The notes under the pieces are model-generated. The model ran no database searches, had not been told where the DNA came from, and worked only from the letters and a program-made list of their open reading frames with translations. Of a DNA stretch of 64,000 bases, positions 8,186 through 51,382 are shown one piece after another. Both the position numbers and the translations under genes were made by a program. Position 1 is the first letter of the stretch. Each line of letters starts with the position of its first letter. The stretch is from Gemmatimonadota bacterium (lineage in GTDB: Bacteria; Gemmatimonadota; Gemmatimonadetes; Longimicrobiales; Gaopeijiaceae): positions 5,136 through 69,135 of the forward strand of contig SHZS01000003.1 of assembly GCA_009692105.1 (NCBI GenBank), read 5' to 3'.

Positions 8186-10249
8186 ATGCCAGATGAAGCG
8201 CTGGACCTAGACACGCCCGCCGAGGAGCTCCCGCCGGATGACGCCCGCGAGCTCGTCGCGACGATCCGTGCGGAGATCGCACGTCACGACCGCCTCTACC
8301 ACGTGGATGGACACCCCGAGATCTCGGACGCGAGGTACGATCGCCTCTTCCAGCGATTGCAGGAGGTCGAGAAGAGATTTCCCCATCTCCAAAGCGACAC
8401 CTCCCCGACTCAGAGGGTGGCCGGGGAGCCCCGAGGCGAACTCCCGACGCTCCCCCACGCAGCACCGATGCTCTCCCTCGACTCGACGCAGGATCCGGAA
8501 GAGGTGCGCCGGTTCCTCGACCGGATGCGGAAGGCGCTGGGGAGCGATGAGATCGAGTATCTGCTCGAACCCAAGCTGGATGGCGTGTCGCTCGAGCTCG
8601 TATACGAGCGGGGGGTGCTGGCGCGCGCGGTGACGCGAGGCAATGGCCGGGAGGGCGAAGGGGTGATCGACAACGTTCGGACGATCCCCTCGGTGCCACT
8701 CCGGCTCCGCGAAGCGGATCGGGGCACGCCTGAATTCCTGTCCGTCCGAGGAGAGGTTCTGATGTCGCTTTCGGCCTTCGAGGCTTTGAACGAGGAGCTC
8801 GTCAAGGCAGGCGTCGAGCCATACTCGAACCCCAGGAATTCGGCGTCCGGTGCCCTCCGTCAGCTGGACGCGTCCATCACGGCACGGCGACCCCTGCAAT
8901 GTCTCGCCTACGATGTGCTCGAGGTTCGTGGACCGACCTTCCGCTCCGACGAAGAAGTCGTGGGCGCGCTCCGGGAGTGGGGGTTTCCGATCCCGGAGCG
9001 GGTCCGCACGGTTCGGAGCGTTGACGAGATCCTCGAGTACCACGCCGCCTTCGAGCGCGACCGCGACTCGCTCGACTACGAGATCGACGGGATCGTCGTG
9101 AAGCTGAACGGACTGCGCGAGCGCACCGACCTGGGGGCCACAGCCCACCATCCCCGATGGGCGATTGCGTTCAAGTTCGAGCCCCGGAAGGAGATCACCA
9201 GGATCGAGCGCATCGTGATCCAGGTCGGTCGCACGGGTGTGCTCACCCCTGTGGCCCTCCTCCTCCCGGTTGAAGTCGGGGGAGTGACCGTATCACGAGC
9301 CTCCCTCCATAACCGGGAGGAGCTGGAGCGCCGCGACATCCGGGAGGAGGATCTCGTGCGGGTGCAGCGGGCGGGTGATGTGATTCCGCAGGTCGTGGAG
9401 GTCATTGCCGAAGAGGGGCGGACGCGCGCGGCTCCCTTCTCGATGCCCGATCGTTGTCCGGAGTGCCGGACACCCGTGCAGACGAAGGGGCCGTTCACCG
9501 TTTGTCCGAATCGTCTCGCGTGTCCCGCACAGCTCAAGGGGAGACTCAGCCACTTTGCTTCGCGAGAAGGACTCGACATTGAAGGGCTGGGCTCGGAGAC
9601 GGCATCCCTCCTCGTGGAGCGAGGGCTCGTGACAGAGCTCGCCGACGTCTTCGATCTCGAGGAGCAGGACCTGCTCCCTCTCCCGGGGTTTGCGGAGAAG
9701 TCGGCCCGAAACCTCACCGCAGCGATCCGATCGCGCCGCACGACCGAGCTCAGACGATTCCTGTACGCGGTGGGGATCCCCGAGGTCGGCTCAGCCGTCG
9801 CCGGAGACCTGGCCTCCCATTTCGGGACGCTCGAGCGGCTCTGGGATGCGGGGGAGGAGGATATCCAGGACGTGGGCGGTGTCGGCCCCCGGATGGCGGA
9901 GCAGATCCGTGGCTTCTTCCAAGAGCCGGCAAATCGCGCAGCCGTTGCACGGCTCCGCGACCGCATGGAGGCCCTCACCGTGCCCACCGGCGAGTCGCCT
10001 GGGGGTCCCTTCCACGGTCGGCGCTTCGTCTTCACCGGAACCCTCGAGTCCATGTCCCGCTCCCGTGCCAAGGAGCTGGTCGAGGACGCCGGGGGGCGCG
10101 CCGTATCCAGCGTGAGCGGGGAAACCCACTTCCTCGTAGCAGGAGCGGGAAGGGGCTCCAAACTCGAGGCGGCCCGGAAGCTGGGTGTGACGATCCTCAG
10201 CGAGCAAGAATTCCTCGCGATGCTTGCCGACGCAGGCATCGGGCTTTGA
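8186..10249 (+). CDS. ligA: NAD-dependent DNA ligase LigA
   Basis: 687 aa with the adenylation motif EPKLDGVS (KxDG), Zn finger CPECRTPV...CPN..C, HhH repeats and a C-terminal BRCT domain (GRRFVFTGTL). Confidence 0.96.
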   Translation: MPDEALDLDTPAEELPPDDARELVATIRAEIARHDRLYHVDGHPEISDARYDRLFQRLQEVEKRFPHLQSDTSPTQRVAGEPRGELPTLPHAAPMLSLDSTQDPEEVRRFLDRMRKALGSDEIEYLLEPKLDGVSLELVYERGVLARAVTRGNGREGEGVIDNVRTIPSVPLRLREADRGTPEFLSVRGEVLMSLSAFEALNEELVKAGVEPYSNPRNSASGALRQLDASITARRPLQCLAYDVLEVRGPTFRSDEEVVGALREWGFPIPERVRTVRSVDEILEYHAAFERDRDSLDYEIDGIVVKLNGLRERTDLGATAHHPRWAIAFKFEPRKEITRIERIVIQVGRTGVLTPVALLLPVEVGGVTVSRASLHNREELERRDIREEDLVRVQRAGDVIPQVVEVIAEEGRTRAAPFSMPDRCPECRTPVQTKGPFTVCPNRLACPAQLKGRLSHFASREGLDIEGLGSETASLLVERGLVTELADVFDLEEQDLLPLPGFAEKSARNLTAAIRSRRTTELRRFLYAVGIPEVGSAVAGDLASHFGTLERLWDAGEEDIQDVGGVGPRMAEQIRGFFQEPANRAAVARLRDRMEALTVPTGESPGGPFHGRRFVFTGTLESMSRSRAKELVEDAGGRAVSSVSGETHFLVAGAGRGSKLEAARKLGVTILSEQEFLAMLADAGIGL

Positions 10250-11574
10250 ATCCGATCGTGAATGTGCCATTGCTCCCACGCATCACCGTTCCTCCTCCGG
10301 GCCCCGCCTCACGGGCAATGGCGGCCCGCCTGGCGCGGGTAGAGTCGCGGAACGTCACCTACCTCGCCGACGACTTTCCCGTCTTCTGGTCACGCGGGGA
10401 GGGGGCCACCGTCGAGGACGCCGACGGGAACATCTTTCTCGATCTGACCGGGGCGTTTGGCGTCGTGCTCGCCGGCCATGGTCATCCGCGGATCGTAGAA
10501 GCCATCCAGCGACAGGCTGCGGTGCTGGCGCACGGAATGGGAGACGTCCATCCCCCGGTGCGGAAGCTCGAGCTCCTCGAGCGCCTCTCGTCGCTGATGC
10601 CGTGGAAGGAGGCCCGAGGGATCCTCGCCTCGTCGGGCTCGGAGGCCGTCGAGATCGCGCTCAAGGCCGCACTACTGGCCACGGGTCGGAGTGGGATCGT
10701 CGCGTTCGGCGGCGGTTACCACGGGCTCACTGTGGGGGCGCTTTCGGTGACTTCACGGAAGGACTTCCGCGCACCGTTCGCCGACCGGCTCTTCCAGAAG
10801 GTGCGCTTCGTCCCCTTCCCTGACCCCCTTCGCGACGGAGCCGAGGCGGCGCCCCGGTCCCTCCGAGCGCTGGACGATGCGATCGGCAAGCTCGAGGCGG
10901 AGGGGAGCCCAGCGGGCTGCGTGATCGTGGAGCCCATTCAGGGAAGGGGCGGGGTCCGGATCCCCCCTCCTGGCTTCCTCGCCGACGTCGCGCGAAGGAC
11001 CCGGCGCGGAGGAGCCCTGCTCGTCTTGGATGAGATCTTCACCGGCCTAGGACGAACGGGGTCCCTCTTCGCCTTCCAGGAAGAAGGGGTCGTGCCGGAC
11101 GTCCTGTGTCTCGGAAAAGGACTTGGAGGCGGGCTTCCCTTGAGCGCGTGCTTCGCGTCCCGTGAGGTGATGGACGCGTGGCCCACCTCCAGGGGAGAGG
11201 CCCTTCACACCTCCACCTTCTTGGGCCACCCCCTCGCGTGCTCGGCGAGCCTCGCCCTCCTCGACGTGCTCGAATCCGAGGGGCTGGTGGAGCGGGCAAG
11301 AAAGGAAGGGGCTTGGCTCTGCGGCAGGCTCCGCGAGGCGCTTCGAGGTCTTCCAGACGTGCGGGAGGTCCGCGGGAGAGGGCTCCTGGCCGGCATCGTC
11401 CTCGCGTCCGACGGAGCCGGCGCTGGCGCCGCGGTCCGTGCACTCCGAGAGGGACTTATCGTTCTCCCCGCCGGGGAGCAGTCGAACGTAGTCGAGCTCG
11501 CTCCTCCGCTCACGATCGCGCGGGCGCAGCTCGAATGGGCAGTAGGAGCGCTTGTTCGAACGCTTACCTGTTAA
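10246..11574 (+). CDS. Class III PLP-dependent aminotransferase (substrate not assignable)
   Basis: 442 aa with DEIFTGLGRTGSLFAF and LGKGLGGGLPLSA (PLP-Lys region). TTG start overlaps the ligA stop by 4 nt. Confidence 0.85.
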   Translation: MNPIVNVPLLPRITVPPPGPASRAMAARLARVESRNVTYLADDFPVFWSRGEGATVEDADGNIFLDLTGAFGVVLAGHGHPRIVEAIQRQAAVLAHGMGDVHPPVRKLELLERLSSLMPWKEARGILASSGSEAVEIALKAALLATGRSGIVAFGGGYHGLTVGALSVTSRKDFRAPFADRLFQKVRFVPFPDPLRDGAEAAPRSLRALDDAIGKLEAEGSPAGCVIVEPIQGRGGVRIPPPGFLADVARRTRRGGALLVLDEIFTGLGRTGSLFAFQEEGVVPDVLCLGKGLGGGLPLSACFASREVMDAWPTSRGEALHTSTFLGHPLACSASLALLDVLESEGLVERARKEGAWLCGRLREALRGLPDVREVRGRGLLAGIVLASDGAGAGAAVRALREGLIVLPAGEQSNVVELAPPLTIARAQLEWAVGALVRTLTC

Positions 11575-12362
11575 GCCGTGATCTCCTCTCCACCGTCCAC
11601 GTTGATCACGTTCCCCGTGACCCAATGGGTGAGGGGAGAGCAGAGAGCGACGGTCGCGGCGGCAACGTCATCGGGGGTCGTGAGGCGCCCGGAAGGATTC
11701 CTTGCCAGGGCCCCTGCGAGCAACGTCTCGTTCCCCGGGATCTTCCTGAGCGCCGGGGTATCCGTCACGCCACCCCGTAGCGCGTTCACCGTGATTCCTC
11801 GGGGAGCCAGCTCATACGCCAGCTGGCGGCAATGCGATTCGAGCGCCGCCTTCGCACCCGACACGGGTCCGTACGAAGGGATGACCCGGTTCGAGCCCGA
11901 GGACGTCATCGCGAAGATCCGGCCGTCCTTCCTCATGAGATCGCGGGCCAGAATCGCCCGGGTCCAATCGACGAGCGAGTGAGCCATCACGCGCAGCGTC
12001 ATGTCCATTTGCGCAGGCGTGACCGCGTCCTCGCCGACGTACGGTCGGAGGGTGCCGAAGGCAAGGGAGTGCATGAGCACCCCGATGTCCTCCCCCTTCT
12101 CCATGAGGGGGACCATTTCGTCCAGCGTGGCCTCCATCCGTTCCGGGTCGGCAGCGTTGATATTGAAGAAGTGAGCTTTCCGGCCGGACGCGCGGAGCTC
12201 CTCCACGAGCTCCTCCACCCTCTTCAGGCCCGCCCGACGGTCGAGATGCACGCCGAAGACGTGGTAACCAGCCTTAGCGAGCGCTCTCGCGCACGCCTCC
12301 CCGAAGCCGCTCGAGGCGCCGAGTACGAGTGCCCAGCGACCGCCTGTGGCGGACGGGGTCAT
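11571..12362 (-). CDS. Short-chain dehydrogenase/reductase (enoyl-reductase-like SDR)
   Basis: 263 aa with Rossmann motif LVLGASSGFGEA and YxxxK (YGPVSGAK). Its stop overlaps the stop of the convergent aminotransferase. Confidence 0.8.
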   Translation of the reverse strand: MTPSATGGRWALVLGASSGFGEACARALAKAGYHVFGVHLDRRAGLKRVEELVEELRASGRKAHFFNINAADPERMEATLDEMVPLMEKGEDIGVLMHSLAFGTLRPYVGEDAVTPAQMDMTLRVMAHSLVDWTRAILARDLMRKDGRIFAMTSSGSNRVIPSYGPVSGAKAALESHCRQLAYELAPRGITVNALRGGVTDTPALRKIPGNETLLAGALARNPSGRLTTPDDVAAATVALCSPLTHWVTGNVINVDGGEEITA

Positions 12363-42690: not shown

Positions 42691-43356
42691 ATGTACCTGC
42701 TCGTATTCGACTTCGATAGCACCCTGGTCTCCGTGGAAGGGCTCGACGAGCTCTTCGCACGGTCCCTGACCGGACATCCCGAGCAGGCAAGCCGGATCCA
42801 GGCGTTCCGCGAGGTCACGGACCTGGGGATGGCCGGCACGATCTCGGCGGAGGAGTCTCTGAATAGGAGGCTCGCAATCCTCGACGTGGACCGCGCGACG
42901 GTGGACACAGTTGCGGCCGAGATTCGGGAGAAGGTGACCCCGTCGGTGGCGAAACACGCCAGCTTCTTTCGAGAGAATGCCAAGCGGATCCACGTCGTCT
43001 CAGGCGGCTTCGAGGAGCTTATTCAGCCCACACTCGGCCGACTCGGACTCCCGCTCTCGCAGCTCCATGCGCACCGTTTCCAGTACTCGAAGGGACGCGT
43101 CGTCGGGCTCGATCCCACCACCGCAATGGCCCGGGGTGGGAAGGTCGGTATCGTCGGGGCACTCGGGTCGGGCAGCGAGCCGATGCCCATCTGGATCGTC
43201 GGCGACGGCGCCACCGATTTCGAGGTGAAGGAGCGCGGGTTCGCGGAGCGCTTCGTCGCCTTTACCGAGAACCGGTGGCGCGAACCGGTGGTGGCAACGG
43301 CGGACCACGTGGTCGGCTCCATGGATGAACTCCTCCAACTTCTCGAGGATGGGTGA
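42691..43356 (+). CDS. HAD-IB hydrolase, phosphoserine-phosphatase-like
   Basis: ATG 42691 gives MYLLVFDFDSTLV (DxDxT motif I); motif III is VGDGATD. Confidence 0.75.
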   Translation: MYLLVFDFDSTLVSVEGLDELFARSLTGHPEQASRIQAFREVTDLGMAGTISAEESLNRRLAILDVDRATVDTVAAEIREKVTPSVAKHASFFRENAKRIHVVSGGFEELIQPTLGRLGLPLSQLHAHRFQYSKGRVVGLDPTTAMARGGKVGIVGALGSGSEPMPIWIVGDGATDFEVKERGFAERFVAFTENRWREPVVATADHVVGSMDELLQLLEDG

Positions 43357-43658
43357 TCCCTCCGCTCGACATTCCCACGACCCTTTCGGTGAACTTCCCG
43401 AAGCTGAGCCTCTTCCTGACGAACGGCGCGGCCGGGACCTTTACGGGAAGCTGGACACAGGGGGGGAGCAGCAACGAGGTCGTGAATGGGTCCTACCAGG
43501 ATGGCGTGGTCCGATTCACGCTCGTGGGGTTTCAGGGCGGATCACCCACCTTTGTGGGGGCGCTGACCCACCGTTACCGAATATCAGGGACGCTAGAGCT
43601 GGACGAGCTGGACGGCCCGGCCGTCTTCCGACGCTCATCGTTCACGGTCCCAGACTGA
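43353..43658 (+). CDS. Small hypothetical beta-rich protein
   Basis: 101 aa with a GTG start overlapping the HAD stop (GTGA). GC3-rich. No family recognised. Confidence 0.45.
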   Translation: MIPPLDIPTTLSVNFPKLSLFLTNGAAGTFTGSWTQGGSSNEVVNGSYQDGVVRFTLVGFQGGSPTFVGALTHRYRISGTLELDELDGPAVFRRSSFTVPD

Positions 43659-43699
43659 CGGCGGGGACCCGGAACCCCAACGTTCAGTTGCAGCGAAGG

Positions 43700-44983
43700 T
43701 CAGTCGCGGCGGAAGACGCGATTGCGGGCGAGGCAATCCGCGAGCTCCCCGTAGATCTCCCGGAGCTGGTCCCGATCCCGGCCCCTTAGCAGCTCGTCCG
43801 GATCGCGGCGGGGCCCAAGGCTCCTGACGATCCGACTCGCCAGGGAGCCCTCTTCGAGAATCGTCAGGAGAGGATCGCGACCGTCTCCGTCCCGTTCCGG
43901 CCCCTCGCCCTCCCACGGCACGGGGGGCGCGCGGTCCAGGAGTTCCCACCACACGTCCCGGGCCCAGCGCACCTTTGCGGCTTTCGGGAGCCCCAGCGCC
44001 TCCATGTACCGGACGGACTCCAGGCGAGCGCCCTCGGCCTTCCGGATCACGAGGTCCAGCACGCCGGCCAGCTCGTCGGTTCCGAGCCGATGCGGGCGCT
44101 CGTCTCCGTCGAGGATCCGGGAGCAGAGCTGGTTCACGACCCCGGTGACCGCCCTCACCACGGACAGGTCGGCGGCCGGGCATTCCTGCGTATCCAAGAT
44201 TCGGAGCTCGATCGTGTCGCGCTCGAAGCGGGCGATGGCCCCACGGGCGTTCACCCATTCGTGCCGGAGCGTCCCGTCGGGGTCGTGCAGGGCGAGATCC
44301 CGATAAATCGGCCCTAAGATCTCCCTCTCGTAATCCTTCTGCGTGTCCACCGCATCCGGGACCACAGCACCGGCCACAGAAGGGATGCGGCGGGAATTCT
44401 GCCCATACTCCACCATGCGCTGGTCGAGGGCCTCCTGGACCCGCCCATCCAGGATCGGGCTAGAGGCCGCGACCGCCGGCAAGAGAGGGAGGATCGCGCG
44501 AACGGCCGAGTGGAGCGCCCGGAACTCATCGTCTCCTTGGAAGGGGAGGTTCAGATGGATCGACTGAAGGTTGGCCCACCCGTGCCCGCGACAGGAGAAG
44601 ATCCGGTCGAAGGCCTCATAGACCTCGTTGTTCTCGTGGGGCCAGAGACGAGCTTCGGCGTCGGGGTCCATCCAGGGGTGCGCCCCCCCAGGGAGGAGGA
44701 TCGCATCCAGGGAGGCGAGCGCGTCGTTCGCCTCGATGACATTCCGATGGAAGAGCGAAGAGAGACCGGTCAGCACAGGGGCCGGACCGATGGTCTTGAG
44801 CTCGATGACGTGGAGAACCAGCTCGTTCGACCAGGCGAGCTCACCCCGCTCCACCTCCGAAACCGGTTCCCCCGCCAACCGCTCTAGCAGGCGATCCGAG
44901 ATCGGCCGGACGTCCAGGGTCAGGCGGTCCACGATCATGTATTCGACTTCGACCCCGAACCCCTGGAAGAGGCCGAGGGTCAC
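43700..44983 (-). CDS. Carboxylate-amine ligase, glutamate-cysteine ligase family 2 (GCS2/YbdK-like)
   Basis: Starts LGLFQGFGVEVEYMIVD and contains GGAHPWMDP, as in GCS2 enzymes. GTG 44983 forms a GTGA overlap with the upstream stop. The track ORF extends to 45295. Confidence 0.75.
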   Translation of the reverse strand: MTLGLFQGFGVEVEYMIVDRLTLDVRPISDRLLERLAGEPVSEVERGELAWSNELVLHVIELKTIGPAPVLTGLSSLFHRNVIEANDALASLDAILLPGGAHPWMDPDAEARLWPHENNEVYEAFDRIFSCRGHGWANLQSIHLNLPFQGDDEFRALHSAVRAILPLLPAVAASSPILDGRVQEALDQRMVEYGQNSRRIPSVAGAVVPDAVDTQKDYEREILGPIYRDLALHDPDGTLRHEWVNARGAIARFERDTIELRILDTQECPAADLSVVRAVTGVVNQLCSRILDGDERPHRLGTDELAGVLDLVIRKAEGARLESVRYMEALGLPKAAKVRWARDVWWELLDRAPPVPWEGEGPERDGDGRDPLLTILEEGSLASRIVRSLGPRRDPDELLRGRDRDQLREIYGELADCLARNRVFRRD

Positions 44984-46455
44984 CGCGAGATCTTCCGGCC
45001 TTGGGAGCCGCGCTCGTCCAGCCTGCGACGGATCACCCTCATGATCTCGAGGTAGAGCTCGTCCTTGAGAACGGCGTCCTCCTGGCCTGCGTCCACGTTC
45101 GGGTTGTCGTTCACCTCCGTGACGACACACCGTCCGTTCACCTGTTTCAAGTCCACGCCGTAGAAGCCAGGTCCGATCAGGGTGGCGGCGCGCACCGCGA
45201 TGTCCACCACCTCCTCCGGGACCTCGGCCATCGGCACCGCCTCCACCTTCCCGTACCGGTTCTGCCGGCCGCCCCTCGCGCGAACGATCTGCCAATGGCC
45301 CGGCGCCATGTGGTATCGGCAGGCGAAGAGCGACCGCCCCTCGAGCACCCCGATGCGCCAGTCGAAGGACGACGGCGTCCAGGCCTGAGCGATCACCAGC
45401 TCGGATTCCTTGAAGAGCTCGGGGAGGATCCGCAGGAGATCGGCTCTGTCTTCCGCCTTGACCACTCCCCTCGAGAACGTTCCGTCAGGCCGCTTCAGGA
45501 CGCATGGAAGGCCGACACACTTCTCGATGTCGCCCGTATTTCCTTCGTGTACTACCAGGGTGGCGGGGGTCGGGATCCTGTGGCGCCGAAAGAGTTCCGC
45601 CTGATAGACCTTGTTCGAGCACCGGATGATGGACTCGGGATCATCAATGACGACCATCCCTTCCCATTCGGCGCGCCTGGCCATCCGGTACGTGTGGTGC
45701 TCCACGGCGGTCGTCTCCCGGATGAAAAGCGCGTCGTACTCGGCAACCCGCGCCGCGTCGTCGGGCTCGATCACGTCGGCTCGTATCCCCTGGGCCTGCG
45801 CGGCCTTCACGAACTTCCGGATCGCCCGGGCGTCCGACGGAGGGCTCGGGTCATTCTCCCGCCAGAGGATCGCGAGGTCATAGCGAGTATTCTCGGATCT
45901 CGCGGGGGCGGCGGGGCGGCGGAAGAATCGTGTCGCCTGCTCGACCGCGAACGGACGGTGCTCGTCGGGAAGCTCGGAGGTCGGGATGGGGCGGATCCCC
46001 ACGAGCGACCACTCCCCACGCTCCCTCACGAATCGGGCACGCAGGAGGGGAGCCGGAAACTCGTTGAAGAGCGCTCGGGCCAGCGCGTCGTGGCGACGCG
46101 CCAGATTCTTCCCGAAGTAGATCGAGAGAGTGAACTCGTCCGAAAGGAGCGGGGCCAAGCTCTTCTGGATGAGCGACTCGATATCGTCCGACACAAGGCG
46201 GACCACGCTCGAGCTCCCGAGGGACTGGAGGGTGGTGACCGATGGGATGGGGCGGTGCCCTCGGGCCTGGGCGAGGAGGGACACGTAATACCCGACGGAT
46301 TGGTATCCGTAGCGACGGCAGATATTGAAGACCGCCGCCCCCCTCAGAGCCGAATAGCGGTCCTCCGTCAGATAGGCGCGGGCCGAGACGAGCTCCACCC
46401 CTTCCACATCGAACGGCCAGCGGCTCGGGTTCTCGACGACGACCAGCGCCCTCAT
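44980..46455 (-). CDS. RimK-like ATP-grasp ligase with N-terminal RLAN domain
   Basis: 491 aa. The N-terminal ~90 aa (NICRRYGYQSVGYYVSLLAQARGHRPIPSV) look like RLAN. The C-terminal ATP-grasp region includes CVLKRPDGTFSRGV, VIAQAW, FACRYHMAPGHWQI and VVTEVNDNPN. Confidence 0.8.
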   Translation of the reverse strand: MRALVVVENPSRWPFDVEGVELVSARAYLTEDRYSALRGAAVFNICRRYGYQSVGYYVSLLAQARGHRPIPSVTTLQSLGSSSVVRLVSDDIESLIQKSLAPLLSDEFTLSIYFGKNLARRHDALARALFNEFPAPLLRARFVRERGEWSLVGIRPIPTSELPDEHRPFAVEQATRFFRRPAAPARSENTRYDLAILWRENDPSPPSDARAIRKFVKAAQAQGIRADVIEPDDAARVAEYDALFIRETTAVEHHTYRMARRAEWEGMVVIDDPESIIRCSNKVYQAELFRRHRIPTPATLVVHEGNTGDIEKCVGLPCVLKRPDGTFSRGVVKAEDRADLLRILPELFKESELVIAQAWTPSSFDWRIGVLEGRSLFACRYHMAPGHWQIVRARGGRQNRYGKVEAVPMAEVPEEVVDIAVRAATLIGPGFYGVDLKQVNGRCVVTEVNDNPNVDAGQEDAVLKDELYLEIMRVIRRRLDERGSQGRKISR

Positions 46456-47174
46456 CGTGGGACGCTCCGGACGCCGGGCTCCACGACGAGGAAGTTCGCG
46501 TCGTACGTCAGGACCCCTAGCAGGATCGCTCCGATCAGGCGCTGGATCCCGACCCGGTAGTAGTGCAGAAGGAAGCGAGGGTTCTCACCCAGCGGATCGG
46601 CCACGAGCACTTCGGCCGTGTCGGAGTCATAGCCGGAGAGCACCACGAAGTGCCCGGTCGGGAGGCCCCGCACGTCATCGTAAACGATCCGCCGTTCGCC
46701 CTGCTCCCGAGGGCAGCCGTAGAGGTACGTCGCCGAGAGACCGGTCAGGATCGGCCGTCTCTTCTCTAGGAAGCCGCGAAGGAGCTCCGGCGTGAGCTCC
46801 TGGAACCGGAGGTTACCTCCAAGCGCGAGGAAGTCCAGGTACACGTCGGTTGCGACGTGGAGCTTCGGGTCGTTCTTCACCCGGGCTTGATCCTTCAGGC
46901 GCGCGGGGAGAAGCTCGCGGTCCTCCTCGAACCAGGTCGGGTCGAAGACGTGCAGGTTGTACGTGTAGATGGTCGCCGAATACCCCCGGTGTAGCGCGTG
47001 GCGCGCCAGAAGAACCGCTAGCGTGCCGTGCGTGTCGAGCGGGACGATTTCCCGGATCACCCGCTCGAGCGGGATCTCGTCCCCGTAGAAGCCGTACAGG
47101 GCCTGGAGGCAGGTAGGCCCACAGGTCGTGTCGTCGGGCTGAGGAAGAATTCGGACTTCGAAGAGTTCGGACAT
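46452..47174 (-). CDS. Stand-alone C39-like (papain-fold) cysteine peptidase
   Basis: QPDDTTCGPTCLQALYGFYG carries the catalytic Cys context and PTGHFVVLSGYD the catalytic His context. I placed the start at ATG 47174 (MSELFEV). ATGA overlap with the ATP-grasp gene. Confidence 0.7.
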   Translation of the reverse strand: MSELFEVRILPQPDDTTCGPTCLQALYGFYGDEIPLERVIREIVPLDTHGTLAVLLARHALHRGYSATIYTYNLHVFDPTWFEEDRELLPARLKDQARVKNDPKLHVATDVYLDFLALGGNLRFQELTPELLRGFLEKRRPILTGLSATYLYGCPREQGERRIVYDDVRGLPTGHFVVLSGYDSDTAEVLVADPLGENPRFLLHYYRVGIQRLIGAILLGVLTYDANFLVVEPGVRSVPR

Positions 47175-47308
47175 CCGCGTGTTACCCACACGCACCCGGT
47201 CCGTTGCGGCACAGCGTTCCCGCTCTCGCAACAGCCACGAAGTTCGTCCCATCCCCGGCGCACCCTAAGGTTGACGGCGACGGGAAGCAGACCCAGCATG
47301 AGCAAGCT

Positions 47309-48124
47309 ATGCGGAATCTCCTAGTGGCTTTGGCGATGGGCAGCGCTGTCGTCCTCGTCGCGGCCCCCTCCGACGCTCAGGCTCAGAGGGCCGGCCCCAA
47401 CCCCATCGCCGTGGCGGATTCCTTCTATCTCAGGGAAGGAGACCCGGGTCGGGCGCTCGAGGTCCTCCGCCCCCTGGTGGTTTCCGGAGCCCGGGAATCC
47501 GGGGGCGACCCCCAGCTGTACGATGCTCTGTGGAAGGCCGCTCGGGCCAGCCTCACCATCGGGATCCTGGCCGAACCCAGGCGCGGGCAGGCGGAGTGGT
47601 ACCGGCTCGCCGAGGAGTACGGGCGCAGGGCGGTGGAGCTCGATTCGGAGCGACCCGAGGGACGCTACTGGCTGGTAGCGACGCAGGGACGCATGGCCCT
47701 TCGAGCAGGCGCGGTCGAGGCGTCCTCCCTCGCCGAGGCCGTGCGCGCCGGAGCACACGAGCTCCTCGAGAGGGATCCGGATCACGCGGGGGCGCACAAC
47801 GCACTCGGCCGCCTGTACCTCGCGGTGCTGTCCCTCCCTCGGATGTACCGAATGATGGGGCGGGCCCTCGCGGGAAGGACCACCTTCGCAGAAGCCACCT
47901 GGGCGGCGGCCGAGCAGCACCTCGCCCGGGCAGTCCAGCTCGAACCCGGGATGGTTATCTACCGGGTAGATCTCGCCCGCTTCCACCTGGCGCGGCGAAG
48001 CTGGGATGCCGCGGCGACCGATCTCAACGTTGCGCAGGCTCTCCCGGTCGTCTTCCCGGCGGATACCCTCTTCCAGCGCGAAGCATCGCAGCTCAGGCGC
48101 AGGATCCCTACCGCTTCCCGCTGA
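47309..48124 (+). CDS. Secreted helical-repeat (TPR-like) hypothetical protein
   Basis: ATG 47309 gives [26 protein letters not shown], followed by Ala/Leu/Arg-rich helical repeats. Confidence 0.55.
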
Positions 48125-49037: not shown

Positions 49038-49256
49038 ATGCAGAACTCCATCGGAACGCTCACCGCCGAGCTGTCGGCCGTGAATACCGAGCTCTGGCAC
49101 GCGGAAGACGAGGCGAGGGTCGACGATGACCATCGCGTCGCCGCCGCGAAGCGCCGCATCGACAAGCTCAACCAGCGGCGGAACGACCTAATCGAGCGGA
49201 TCGACGAAGCAGTCATGGCGACGGTGCGCGACGCGAAGGGAGGCTCGAATGGCTGA
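49038..49256 (+). CDS. Small helical protein, DUF4254-like (tentative)
   Basis: 72 aa from ATG 49038: [12 protein letters not shown]...[19 protein letters not shown]. It is the 3' part of a long spurious track ORF (48006..49256). Confidence 0.55.
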
Positions 49257-49536
49257 GACCGTGGGCTCCCTCGTGGACAAGCTCGCCATCGTCGAACTCA
49301 AGATCTATCATATGCGCGAACAGACCGAGCGGGAGGATGCAACGGAGCTTTTCCGCTCCGAGTGCCGGGGTCGCCTTGCGGTGCTCGAGAGGCAGAGGGG
49401 CGACCTGGCTGATGAGCTCACGGGTCTGCTCTCCGACGTGGCCGCGCGCCGCGTGGTCCCCAAGGTCTACCGTCAATTCAAGATGTACAACGATCCAACC
49501 TACCGCCCCGCCCGTCCCCCGAGCCCATCGCCGTAG
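49249..49536 (+). CDS. Small helical protein, DUF4254-like (tentative)
   Basis: 95 aa with [18 protein letters not shown] and KMYNDP. ATGGCTGA overlap with the preceding small gene. Confidence 0.55.
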
Positions 49537-50573
49537 TCGCTGCGGTACTTCGCCTGCCATACCCGGACCTTCTCTACGACCGCCGCCACGGTAATCCTGG
49601 ACATCCGGTTCCGTCGTGAAGCGCGCGTGATCGGGTAGCTCTCCCCGGGATCCCCGTAGGCATCCACGATCAGGTCACGGAAGCGCCTGTACGGGCCAAC
49701 GCGCTTGGGGTTGTTGTATCCCATGAGCGAGACGACGGGCCGACCGAGCGCGACCGACATGTGCATCGGGCCGGTGTCGAGGGAGATCGTGAGGGCGGCG
49801 CCATCCAAGAGCCCCACGAGCTCCCGGAGAGGGATTCCGAGGGTGGAGACCACCGGGCACCGGGCGCGCTCTTGAATGATGGCCTCGATGGCGACCTCCC
49901 GCGGTGAGCGTCCGCCGGCGAGGACGGGCTGCAGGCCGAACTCCTCGTAGAGGACGCTGCAAAGCTCCGCCCAGCGCTCGGGAACCCAGTCCTTCTCGGG
50001 GTTGCTTGTCGCGATGACCAGCGGCAAAGCCGGCCGATCGATCTCTTGGTAGAATCGTTCTTGCGCGGGACGCTCGTCCGGCCATGGCCCGATGTTCCAC
50101 TCCACGGGACCGTCGGTAACATCCAGGGCGCGAAGGAACTCGAAGTATTGATCCTGCACGTGCTGGTCGGGGCGCGAAGGGATCCGGTGCGTGGTAAACA
50201 GGAAGTTCAAGTCCCGGGATCGCCGCCGGTCGAAGCCCAGCCGGATCGGGACGCCCGAGAACGCCGTGATGAGCCCGGCCTTGATGGAGATCTGGAAGGC
50301 GAGAAGGACGTCGAAGCGCCGACCGCGCAGCTCCTTCAGGATCTCACGAAAGGCGGAGAGTCCTTGCTTCCGGTGGAAGACCAGGATCTCGTCCACACAG
50401 GGATGGCCCTGCACGAAGCTCGCCGGACCAGGTTGAAGGACCCAGGTGATCCGACAGTCCGGGGAGTGACGTTTCAGGGCCGAAACCACCGGAAGGACGT
50501 GGACGGCATCTCCGATCGCGCTCATCATCACGATGAGGACGTCGTTCAGCGGCGTTCCCTTGAGATCTACCAT
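49500..50573 (-). CDS. Family 9 glycosyltransferase (LPS heptosyltransferase-like)
   Basis: VLIVMMSAIGDAVHVLPVVSALK and SLDTGPMHMSVALG are GT9 hallmarks. I placed the start at ATG 50573. Confidence 0.82.
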   Translation of the reverse strand: MVDLKGTPLNDVLIVMMSAIGDAVHVLPVVSALKRHSPDCRITWVLQPGPASFVQGHPCVDEILVFHRKQGLSAFREILKELRGRRFDVLLAFQISIKAGLITAFSGVPIRLGFDRRRSRDLNFLFTTHRIPSRPDQHVQDQYFEFLRALDVTDGPVEWNIGPWPDERPAQERFYQEIDRPALPLVIATSNPEKDWVPERWAELCSVLYEEFGLQPVLAGGRSPREVAIEAIIQERARCPVVSTLGIPLRELVGLLDGAALTISLDTGPMHMSVALGRPVVSLMGYNNPKRVGPYRRFRDLIVDAYGDPGESYPITRASRRNRMSRITVAAVVEKVRVWQAKYRSDYGDGLGGRAGR

Positions 50574-50632
50574 TGGGTCGTTGCTGCGGGTTCGTATCGG
50601 GCCCAAGGCGACACCCCCAGACATGGCCGCCG

Positions 50633-51382
50633 ATGCCAACGATCACCGCCTACTTGATCACACGCAACGCCGAGCGACACCTGGACGAAGTGCTCCGCTC
50701 GGTTGAGGGAGTCGACGATATCCTTGTCGTGGACTCGGGGTCCACGGACGCCACCCTCGAGATCGCACGCCGTCACGGCGCGCGCGTGATCCACCAGGAG
50801 TGGCTCGGGTACGCGCGCCAGAAGGCCTTCGCCCTCCGGAGCTGTCAGGGAGAGTGGGCGCTGAACCTGGACGCGGACGAGGTGCTTCCCCCGGGAGCGC
50901 TGGACGCGATCCGGACCCGCATCTCCCGGGGTGACGTGAATGGCATCTACTTGCTCCACGACGACACCTTCATGGGTCGCCCCATGCCGGGGAAGCGCCT
51001 GCCCTTCCTCCGCGTCTATCGGCATGCGAAGGCCCGTTTCGACGAAAGCATGGAGGTCCACGAGCGGGTGCACGTCGAAGGTCCGCTCGATCGGCTCCCC
51101 ATCCCGGTACGGCATTACGGGTACGATTCAATCCAGGACTACGTGGACAAGCTGAACCGGTATTCGCTCCTCAAGGCCGGACAGCGGGCCCGGGAGGGAA
51201 GGCCGTTCAGTCGGTCGAGACTCCTCCTCACGCTCCCGCTCACCTTCCTCAAGTTCTACCTGCTCCGCCGTATGTGCCTGGCAGGCTGGAGGGGCTTCAT
51301 CAAGGCCGTCGTTGACTCGTACTACTTCTTCCTGACCGAGGCGAAGCTGTACGAGCAGGCTTACCGGGAGCAGCACGAGTAA
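50633..51382 (+). CDS. Family 2 glycosyltransferase
   Basis: ATG 50633 gives MPTITAYLITRNAERHL, followed by VVDSGSTDAT and NLDADE. Confidence 0.8.
   Translation: MPTITAYLITRNAERHLDEVLRSVEGVDDILVVDSGSTDATLEIARRHGARVIHQEWLGYARQKAFALRSCQGEWALNLDADEVLPPGALDAIRTRISRGDVNGIYLLHDDTFMGRPMPGKRLPFLRVYRHAKARFDESMEVHERVHVEGPLDRLPIPVRHYGYDSIQDYVDKLNRYSLLKAGQRAREGRPFSRSRLLLTLPLTFLKFYLLRRMCLAGWRGFIKAVVDSYYFFLTEAKLYEQAYREQHE

Follow-up and report, generated by a model that had tools for sequence, protein, structure and literature searches.

A 64,000-nucleotide stretch of DNA from the metagenome-assembled genome of a Gemmatimonadota bacterium (contig SHZS01000003.1, referred to here over its whole length as the window) carries, packed into less than four kilobases, genes for a cysteine peptidase and for two different ATP-dependent ligases, and the question that this locus raises is what a bacterium would make with such a set. 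The cassette is composed of three minus-strand genes at 43700-47174 and runs, in the list of open reading frames (ORFs) of the window, from the peptidase through an RLAN/ATP-grasp ligase to a ligase of the GCS2 family. The gene of the C39-like cysteine peptidase lies at 46452-47174 (coding 46455-47174, stop 46452-46454; 240 amino acids, MSR22151.1), that of the RLAN/RimK-like ATP-grasp ligase at 44980-46455 (coding 44983-46455, stop 44980-44982; 491 amino acids, MSR22150.1), and that of the GCS2-family carboxylate-amine ligase at 43700-44983 (GTG start at 44983, stop 43700-43702; 427 amino acids, MSR22149.1). An earlier reading of the bare sequence, the original prediction, had joined these genes by two four-base overlaps, and both can be read directly in the bases: an ATGA at 46452-46455, shared by the ATP-grasp start and the peptidase stop, and a GTGA at 44980-44983, shared by the GCS2 start and the ATP-grasp stop. 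The public names of the three proteins ("hypothetical protein EXR92_01190" for MSR22151.1, "RimK family alpha-L-glutamate ligase" for MSR22150.1 and "glutamate--cysteine ligase" for MSR22149.1) are guesses. Our own answer, held with somewhat less than even confidence, is that the cassette constitutes a self-contained cytoplasmic module in which a small glutamate-containing peptide is assembled independently of the ribosome and subsequently trimmed or transferred.

Four-base start/stop overlaps are frequent in bacterial operons and unremarkable when taken alone. What rises above chance is not the overlaps themselves, but the fact that the same three genes keep their order and strand across phyla. 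To sample the module we scanned one genome per species with an alignment of ATP-grasp homologues, and retained the best 80 of at least 585 confirmed loci. A tblastn search with the window proteins found peptidase, ATP-grasp and GCS2 genes on one strand and in the same order in 73 of these 80 loci, and most of the seven exceptions sit on incomplete contigs. About 12 phyla are represented (Gemmatimonadota, Myxococcota/"delta proteobacteria", Tectomicrobia, Planctomycetota, Spirochaetota, Acidobacteriota, Pseudomonadota, Desulfobacterota, Nitrospirota, Fibrobacterota, Bacteroidota and Verrucomicrobiota), and the loci include those of the isolates Blastopirellula marina DSM 3645 and Pontibacter burrus. 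Co-conservation of the three genes across genomes, which had been put forward as a check of the original prediction, is thereby confirmed. The junctions are tight throughout. Between peptidase and ATP-grasp the median gap is -4 nucleotides, with values of zero or less in 44 of the 73 loci and of 30 nucleotides or less in 67; between ATP-grasp and GCS2 the median is 8 nucleotides, with 51 of the 73 loci at 30 nucleotides or less. In word-indexed protein searches, each of the three window proteins retrieved upwards of 7,500 sequence clusters, a figure that is a minimum.

The peptidase exceeds the Pfam gathering cut-offs of Peptidase_C39_2 (PF13529; E = 2.1e-8, 35.3 bits vs 24) and of Peptidase_C39 (PF03412; 24.3 bits vs 22), while the NCBIfam model for PA2778-type C39 peptidases is not reached (17.3 vs a cut-off of 150). 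Its translation contains both motifs on which the first assignment had relied, TTCGPTC around the cysteine and GHFVVLSGYD around the histidine. The predicted catalytic set consists of Gln12, Cys18 (codon 47121-47123), His175 (codon 46650-46652) and Asp193; none of these varies among 28 homologues, and in 72 sequences taken from the sampled loci each is conserved to at least 97%. Read in this way, the four residues would supply the oxyanion glutamine and the Cys/His/Asp set of a papain-type enzyme, intact and in the right order. An AlphaFold2 model of the protein has a mean predicted local distance difference test (pLDDT) score of 85.6, and a Foldseek search with it returned the C39 domains of PCAT1, ComA and LahT (E = 1e-6 to 1e-4, template modelling (TM) scores relative to the target of up to 0.83), the primitive phytochelatin synthase Alr0975 (E = 7e-5), and also the pseudomurein endoisopeptidase PeiR and a Bacillus C39-like protein. 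Relative to the query the TM score is only about 0.5; the C39 core measures about 140 residues compared to the 240 present here. The low value arises in part from an insertion of about 60-90 residues between the Cys-bearing helix and the His-bearing strand, which in the model is mostly helical with one short strand (approximately residues 81-137). The homologues begin at the catalytic core, a signal peptide is not apparent, and the enzyme is predicted to be a stand-alone, cytoplasmic protein with a papain fold.

The ATP-grasp protein combines an N-terminal RLAN domain (residues 25-171, nucleotides 45943-46383 of the minus strand; Pfam PF14401, 153.1 bits, E = 5.6e-45) with a RimK ATP-grasp domain (residues 280-457, nucleotides 45085-45618 of the same strand; Pfam RimK, 36.1 bits vs a cut-off of 21). 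Its scores remain below the cut-offs of the NCBIfam models for the RimK family (TIGR00768, 79.3 vs 143.4), the S6 ligase (NF007764, 39.1 vs 331), LysX (76.8 vs 275.6) and MptN (61.9 vs 350). A Foldseek search with the predicted structure (pLDDT 78) placed RimK, ArgX and LysX at the top, with E values of about 1e-15 to 1e-16 over some 300 columns, and listed the graspetide ligase PsnB among the lower matches. The likeness to RimK, and that of the peptidase to C39 domains, are as the original prediction would have them. Six residues of the ligase (R246, K321, R367, D435, E447 and N449) are at least 97% conserved over the 80 loci. A profile alignment with Pseudomonas aeruginosa RimK pairs R64 of the latter with R246, R189 with R367, D248 with D435, E260 with E447 and N262 with N449, and includes the D...E-x-N set that forms the usual Mg/ATP site of ATP-grasp enzymes. 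In the crystal structure of P. aeruginosa RimK, a bound poly-glutamate is contacted by R64, R189 and N262 (PMC10092738). We also considered whether RLAN had arisen by duplication within the protein, from the pre-ATP-grasp domain or from the ligase core, and rejected this, as hhalign comparisons of the respective sub-alignments gave probabilities of at most 3%.

The third protein belongs to the GCS2 family (PF04107; E = 2.9e-18, 66.7 bits vs a Pfam gathering cut-off of 21), as had been proposed. The more specific part of that proposal, a relation to YbdK, survives only in a remote form. The best NCBIfam match is the YbdK family model TIGR02050, at 38.7 against a cut-off of 176.4, and the glutamate-cysteine ligase models (NF010039-43, TIGR02048) give 17-28 against cut-offs of 249-427. 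An hhalign comparison with Escherichia coli YbdK yields a probability of 52% (E = 1.4e-4), in which an N-terminal G-x-E-x-E motif and further acidic and histidine positions are aligned; across the related loci, E12, E14, E54, H58, E61, H143, E259 and R261 are at least 97% conserved. Searches of the Protein Data Bank (PDB) sequences, with the single sequence and with a profile, returned no solved structure at E = 0.01 or better, the profile matching a plant glutamate-cysteine ligase at E = 0.06 only. The protein carries an extra C-terminal region of about 120 residues. Judged by these comparisons, the window protein represents a distinct, divergent and remote GCS2 subfamily. A C-x-x-H-G-W motif (C131, H134, G135 and W136; residues 131-136, at about 44576-44593) is at least 97% conserved within this subfamily, does not align with conserved YbdK residues, and may mark a subfamily-specific site. 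No NCBIfam functional cut-off is reached, so the public name "glutamate--cysteine ligase" is unsupported and amounts to an over-annotation. The same pattern holds for the cassette as a whole: the C39-like, RLAN, RimK/ATP-grasp and GCS2 calls of the original prediction all exceed their Pfam gathering scores, but no functional NCBIfam model is reached, which makes the folds secure and the specific functions not.

Clustering all ORFs of the 80 loci revealed a fourth conserved gene directly downstream of GCS2, which encodes a member of the N-formylglutamate amidohydrolase family (Pfam FGase, PF05013; E = 3e-20). Of the 80 loci, 63 extend far enough beyond GCS2 to be assessed, and 46 of these contain it, usually at a distance of 10-60 nucleotides from GCS2 (for instance L067:8719-9444, from Pontibacter, and L019:8683-9390). 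No FGase gene is present in the window, where tblastn gave no match below E = 0.88 in the whole 64 kb, and the window copy is a minority form of the module without an adjoining FGase gene. Fused gene calls join the peptidase to the RLAN/ATP-grasp protein (P0375, P0428, P0386 and P0413), the ATP-grasp protein to GCS2 (P0416), and GCS2 to FGase (P0306, 703 amino acids, on a 2.4-Mb contig); several of these calls are metagenomic fragments. A separate observation concerns a single locus from a Longimicrobiales genome (L001), in which an acidic repeat translating as (E-E-G-A-x-x)n lies between GCS2 and FGase at about 8760-8990, upstream of the FGase-like ORF and in frame with it.

No further neighbour gene is common to more than 6 of the 80 loci. 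MFS transporters occur in six loci from three phyla, of which four are directly downstream and co-oriented (L016:8766-10100, L036:8427-9962, L044:5587-7020 and L054:8745-10241) and two upstream (L018 and L059), and MscS-type mechanosensitive channels occur in four (L010, L011 at 8715-12233, L029 and L043). These neighbours are possible hints of a small product that is exported or osmotically released. A fusion of a GNAT domain with a carbon-nitrogen-hydrolase (CN-hydrolase) domain of the nitrilase superfamily is present in five loci and co-oriented with the module in Planctomycetota; it stands directly upstream in two (L019:3612-5231 and L022:3549-5213), is inserted between GCS2 and FGase in one (L031:8751-10337), and lies on the opposite strand in the others (L012 and L023). 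The original prediction had seen no precursor-peptide ORF next to the cassette, and this holds across the 80 loci. Their 1.5-kb flanks contain no conserved ORF of 18-90 amino acids, only pairs from closely related loci, and a search for precursors or tags among stop-to-stop ORFs of at least 70 amino acids returned the four enzyme genes, ORFs in their other frames, and minor neighbours present in at most six loci. No ABC transporter is linked to the module in any of the 80 loci. A reading of the cassette as a defence system was discarded, the PADLOC anti-phage defence hidden Markov models giving no matches with the three window proteins.

All four enzyme families make or break amide bonds, and in their characterised members this usually involves glutamate. 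The structure of the genes, their domains, the intact catalytic residues, the conserved operon and the lack of a precursor gene beside it are direct results. What we infer is a sequence of reactions, with its substrates, the order of its steps, a complex of peptidase and ligase, and a physiological role. The GCS2 protein would spend ATP to activate a carboxylate, most likely that at the gamma position of L-glutamate, as an acyl-phosphate, and would link it to the amine of a second amino acid. The RLAN/RimK-type ligase would then activate the free C-terminal alpha-carboxylate of this product and add at least one acidic amino acid, most likely L-Glu, in analogy to RimK, MptN and CofF, and to GshB in the second step of glutathione synthesis. 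The C39-like enzyme, whose translation is coupled to that of the ATP-grasp ligase and which probably binds this partner, would form a thioester with the product through Cys18. This intermediate might be hydrolysed, for length control or recycling, as RimB does for RimK, or its acyl part might be passed to another acceptor, as phytochelatin synthase does. In most other lineages the FGase-family amidohydrolase, whose gene is absent from the window, would finally take off a terminal glutamate. The original suggestion of a peptide-like or gamma-glutamyl-type product that is synthesised, tailed or trimmed independently of the ribosome fits this evidence and continues to be an interpretation of it; the first interpretation is supported as far as sequence analysis reaches. 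The present analysis adds to it the usual fourth gene, the insertion in the peptidase, and the likeness of the latter to phytochelatin synthase.

The named member of the FGase family acts on an N-acyl-glutamate, and phytochelatin synthase, a fold match of the peptidase, acts on a gamma-glutamyl tripeptide; both fit a small glutamate-containing peptide. Our preference for a small molecule over the tailing of a protein comes from indirect evidence: the module has FGase and CN-hydrolase partners as well as MFS and MscS ones, and no carrier, tag or target gene is linked to it. Several points weigh against such a peptide. The closest relatives of the modelled ATP-grasp structure, RimK, LysX and ArgX, all act on a protein C-terminus, the extra RLAN domain could be a protein-recognition module, and the normal substrates of C39 peptidases are peptides or proteins. 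Transporters, channels and the amidase are each found as neighbours in only 4-6 of the 80 loci. Given the great distance of the GCS2 protein from both YbdK and glutamate-cysteine ligase, even glutamate as the acyl donor is a weak assumption. The main rival is a reversible tailing of a protein C-terminus of the RimK/RimB type, which we regard as possible, if on the unlikely side. The RLAN domain would here recruit a target whose gene lies elsewhere, be it ribosomal protein S6 or a different protein; glutamates would be added to it by the ATP-grasp ligase, the C39-like peptidase, plus FGase where present, would remove them, and GCS2 would add a gamma-linked branch or an isopeptide, like the related ligase PafA in pupylation. 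Such a scheme agrees with the extra RLAN domain and with the best structural matches of the ligase, RimK and the LysW-dependent LysX and ArgX, and two ligases with up to two hydrolases resemble a write-and-erase set; if the target were a housekeeping protein, no linked substrate gene would be expected. The pairing of RimK with a dedicated glutamate-removing protease, including fused hybrids, is established (PMC11957791), and fused calls of peptidase and RLAN/ATP-grasp protein exist as well. However, the ligase stays at 79.3 bits where the RimK family cut-off is 143.4, a tag, carrier or target gene is linked in none of the 80 loci, and the FGase family, CN-hydrolase, MFS and MscS partners point to small molecules. 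As RimK also produces free poly-glutamate (PMC10375531), the RimK likeness leaves the choice between peptide and protein undecided.

Three further explanations are less likely. A glutamyl tail on a cofactor or metabolite, to be modified or turned over, would parallel CofE/CofF for F420, MptN for methanopterin and MyfA/MyfB for methylofuran; GCS2 and ATP-grasp would extend a core that is not a peptide by glutamates in gamma and alpha linkage, which the hydrolases would trim. Paired glutamate ligases that extend a cofactor tail are documented for methylofuran (PMC8141765), and MptN is among the better sub-threshold NCBIfam matches, albeit at 61.9 bits and thus far under its cut-off of 350. With a conserved cofactor-biosynthesis neighbour in 0 of 80 loci, and the module spread over about 12 phyla of very different metabolism, we consider this version improbable. 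Still less can be said for a cluster producing a ribosomally synthesised and post-translationally modified peptide (RiPP), such as a graspetide or bacteriocin, in which a leader ending in a double glycine would be cleaved off by the C39 enzyme and cross-links in the core peptide would be the work of the ATP-grasp ligase. The C39 model matches, the fold likeness to PCAT1, ComA and LahT, and the presence of PsnB among the lower Foldseek matches speak in its favour, but the peptidase is stand-alone and cytoplasmic, an ABC transporter is not linked, the 80 loci hold no conserved small ORF within 1.5 kb on either side, and the ATP-grasp domain is closest to RimK, LysX and ArgX, with the MvdC maturase model at 16 bits against a cut-off of 425; we think it very improbable. 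Ordinary glutathione synthesis, with GCS2 as GshA and ATP-grasp as GshB, would account for the public name of MSR22149.1, for the pairing of a GCS-superfamily with an ATP-grasp enzyme, and for a weak match to the glutathione synthetase model. That match amounts to 24 bits against a cut-off of 408, the glutamate-cysteine ligase models and the plant enzyme are as distant as described above, and neither the obligatory peptidase nor the frequent FGase has a role in glutathione synthesis, which leaves this explanation, too, with very little credit. A small glutamate-containing peptide remains our preferred product. It is also conceivable, but doubtful, that a glutathione-like or phytochelatin-like peptide is made by the module, which would then be a pathway of very wide distribution that has gone unrecognised. 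In this version the product of GCS2 would be a gamma-glutamyl dipeptide, the RLAN/ATP-grasp ligase would add a terminal third residue, probably an acidic one, and the cysteine enzyme would be a transpeptidase that oligomerises or transfers the gamma-glutamyl unit. If this were true, Gemmatimonadota, Planctomycetota, Myxococcota, Bacteroidota and others would contain an undescribed small protective peptide, be it a thiol, a metal binder or an osmolyte.

In the window, the cassette is flanked by housekeeping genes, whose products are IlvD, a HAD hydrolase, a TPR protein, GT2 and GT9 glycosyltransferases and a DUF4254 protein; these are unrelated to the cassette, and no other gene is widely common to the loci, from which we take the module to be self-contained. 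The ATG at 47174 is supported as the start of the peptidase gene, since homologues from other phyla align from residue 1 of the 240-residue form, which is also the form called in the public record (MSR22151.1). A longer ORF at 46452-47252 (ATG at 47252, 266 amino acids) would add 26 residues that are not found in the homologues. The next gene upstream, on the plus strand, encodes the TPR protein and most probably starts near 47309. The divergent intergenic region between the two genes (47175-47308) is presumed to hold the operon promoter; it shows no match to the sigma-70 consensus, and a scan of 43300-47500 for promoter and terminator consensus sequences found nothing exceeding the expectation from shuffled sequence. 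On the other side, GCS2 is followed by the convergent HAD hydrolase gene and a small ORF. The latter (43353-43658, plus strand, 101 amino acids) has a protein-like composition, and its GTG start shares a GTGA (43353-43356) with the stop of the HAD hydrolase gene; oriented convergently to GCS2, it ends at a distance of 41 nucleotides from the GCS2 stop. It has no Pfam match and no tblastn match in the 80 related loci. Further along the window, the gene of the DUF4254 protein (49249-49536, plus strand) adjoins 49500-50639 on the minus strand, in the company of a family-9 heptosyltransferase and two GT2 glycosyltransferases. This group looks like a cluster of the lipopolysaccharide-core type, unrelated to the cassette.

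The RLAN domain itself is more widespread than the triad. A phmmer survey with the RLAN region alone (clusters at 50% identity, E = 0.001 or better) returned 766 representative clusters, in which an RLAN domain followed by RimK, of about 490 residues, is the prevailing form. A second architecture places a GNAT domain N-terminal to RLAN and RimK, as in the full-length P0439 (646 amino acids); GNAT followed by RLAN is also seen in P0450, P0430 and P0476. More distant RLAN-RimK proteins, of about 43% identity to that of the window, occur by themselves, the peptidase and GCS2 genes being absent from their vicinity. One is P. aeruginosa WP_016253675.1 (record pZYPA1927, L081:4902-6491), whose gene lies between an SDR oxidoreductase gene, itself adjoining pagP, and an aminotransferase gene. 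Another is found in Azospirillum brasilense (L082), the Azospirillum copies residing on records of megaplasmid or chromid size in the plasmid collection. Given these RLAN-RimK proteins without peptidase and GCS2, the triad is one clade-specific context of a larger family. Viral contigs (L085-L090, from IMG/VR) carry ATP-grasp relatives of about 40% identity. Four of them (L085-L088) match the ligase domain alone and lack RLAN, one (L089) lies at the end of its contig and matches in part only, and one (L090) also matches the first 73 residues of the window protein. None of the six has a peptidase or GCS2 gene near this relative, and the idea of phage-borne copies of the module was dropped. A link to Ngg, the NAGGN (N-acetylglutaminylglutamine amide) dipeptide synthase that combines GNAT with ATP-grasp, was likewise abandoned, as unsupported and not as disproven. 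A tblastn search of the plasmid collection with the GNAT-RLAN-RimK protein gave no Sinorhizobium match, the presence of pSymB in that collection being unchecked; it is on pSymB that the S. meliloti ngg gene presumably lies. NAGGN is a dipeptide osmolyte with a described pathway (PMC8070244).

The existence of the module will be no surprise to a specialist. A paper by Iyer, Abhiman, Burroughs and Aravind (Mol Biosyst, 2009) is said to have predicted a neighbourhood of RLAN-ATP-grasp, GCS2, papain-like peptidase and FGase. What makes the module an attractive and directly testable target is its breadth and small size: three to four soluble cytoplasmic enzymes that are kept together by thousands of bacteria in at least 12 phyla. 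The window copy adds little to this beyond a clean three-gene example without FGase. Identification of the product would put a name to a small peptide or a protein modification that is new, mend the annotation of thousands of genomes, and give the RLAN domain a function. In the literature searched in full text we found no paper on RLAN or PF14401, none that joins RimK/ATP-grasp with GCS2, YbdK, FGase or C39 in a relevant manner, and none that characterises the module, its product, substrate or phenotype. The view that the cassette does not map onto an already characterised pathway is therefore upheld by the NCBIfam functional cut-offs, the PADLOC models and the papers searched alike.

Four known systems invite comparison. 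The C39 domains that process bacteriocins (PCAT1, ComA and LahT) are the best matches of the peptidase in both fold and sequence and share its Gln/Cys/His/Asp set. The window enzyme differs from them in being stand-alone and cytoplasmic and in its insertion of about 60-90 residues, and neither the transporter nor the double-glycine precursor gene of such systems lies near the module. YbdK shares with the third window protein the Pfam GCS2 domain, for which the latter is above the cut-off, and the aligned G-x-E-x-E motif; the relation is a remote one only, and the window protein extends by a further C-terminal region of about 120 residues. To our knowledge, the physiological substrate of YbdK is itself unsettled. 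The pathway to glutathione and phytochelatins (GshA, GshB and phytochelatin synthase) employs the same three enzyme classes as the cassette, a GCS-superfamily ligase, an ATP-grasp ligase and a papain-fold cysteine enzyme, and the predicted fold of the window peptidase matches that of Alr0975. In contrast, no window protein reaches a GshA, GshB or YbdK cut-off, and the peptidase fits the C39 domains better than it fits phytochelatin synthase. In Pseudomonas, RimK is paired with a dedicated glutamate-removing protease, RimB, and hybrid RimB-RimK genes occur (PMC11957791, PMC10092738). The window ligase belongs to the RimK structural class and keeps both the Mg/ATP residues and the arginines that bind the acidic peptide, and here, too, a dedicated protease is encoded beside the ligase and sometimes fused with it. 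The proteases nevertheless differ in fold, papain/C39 in the window and retropepsin in RimB; the window ligase has an extra N-terminal RLAN domain and scores below the RimK family cut-off, and the module possesses an obligatory second ligase of another fold, GCS2, and usually the FGase hydrolase. Set beside these systems, the cassette appears to be not a new kind of system but an ordinary member of a widespread, biochemically uncharacterised module.

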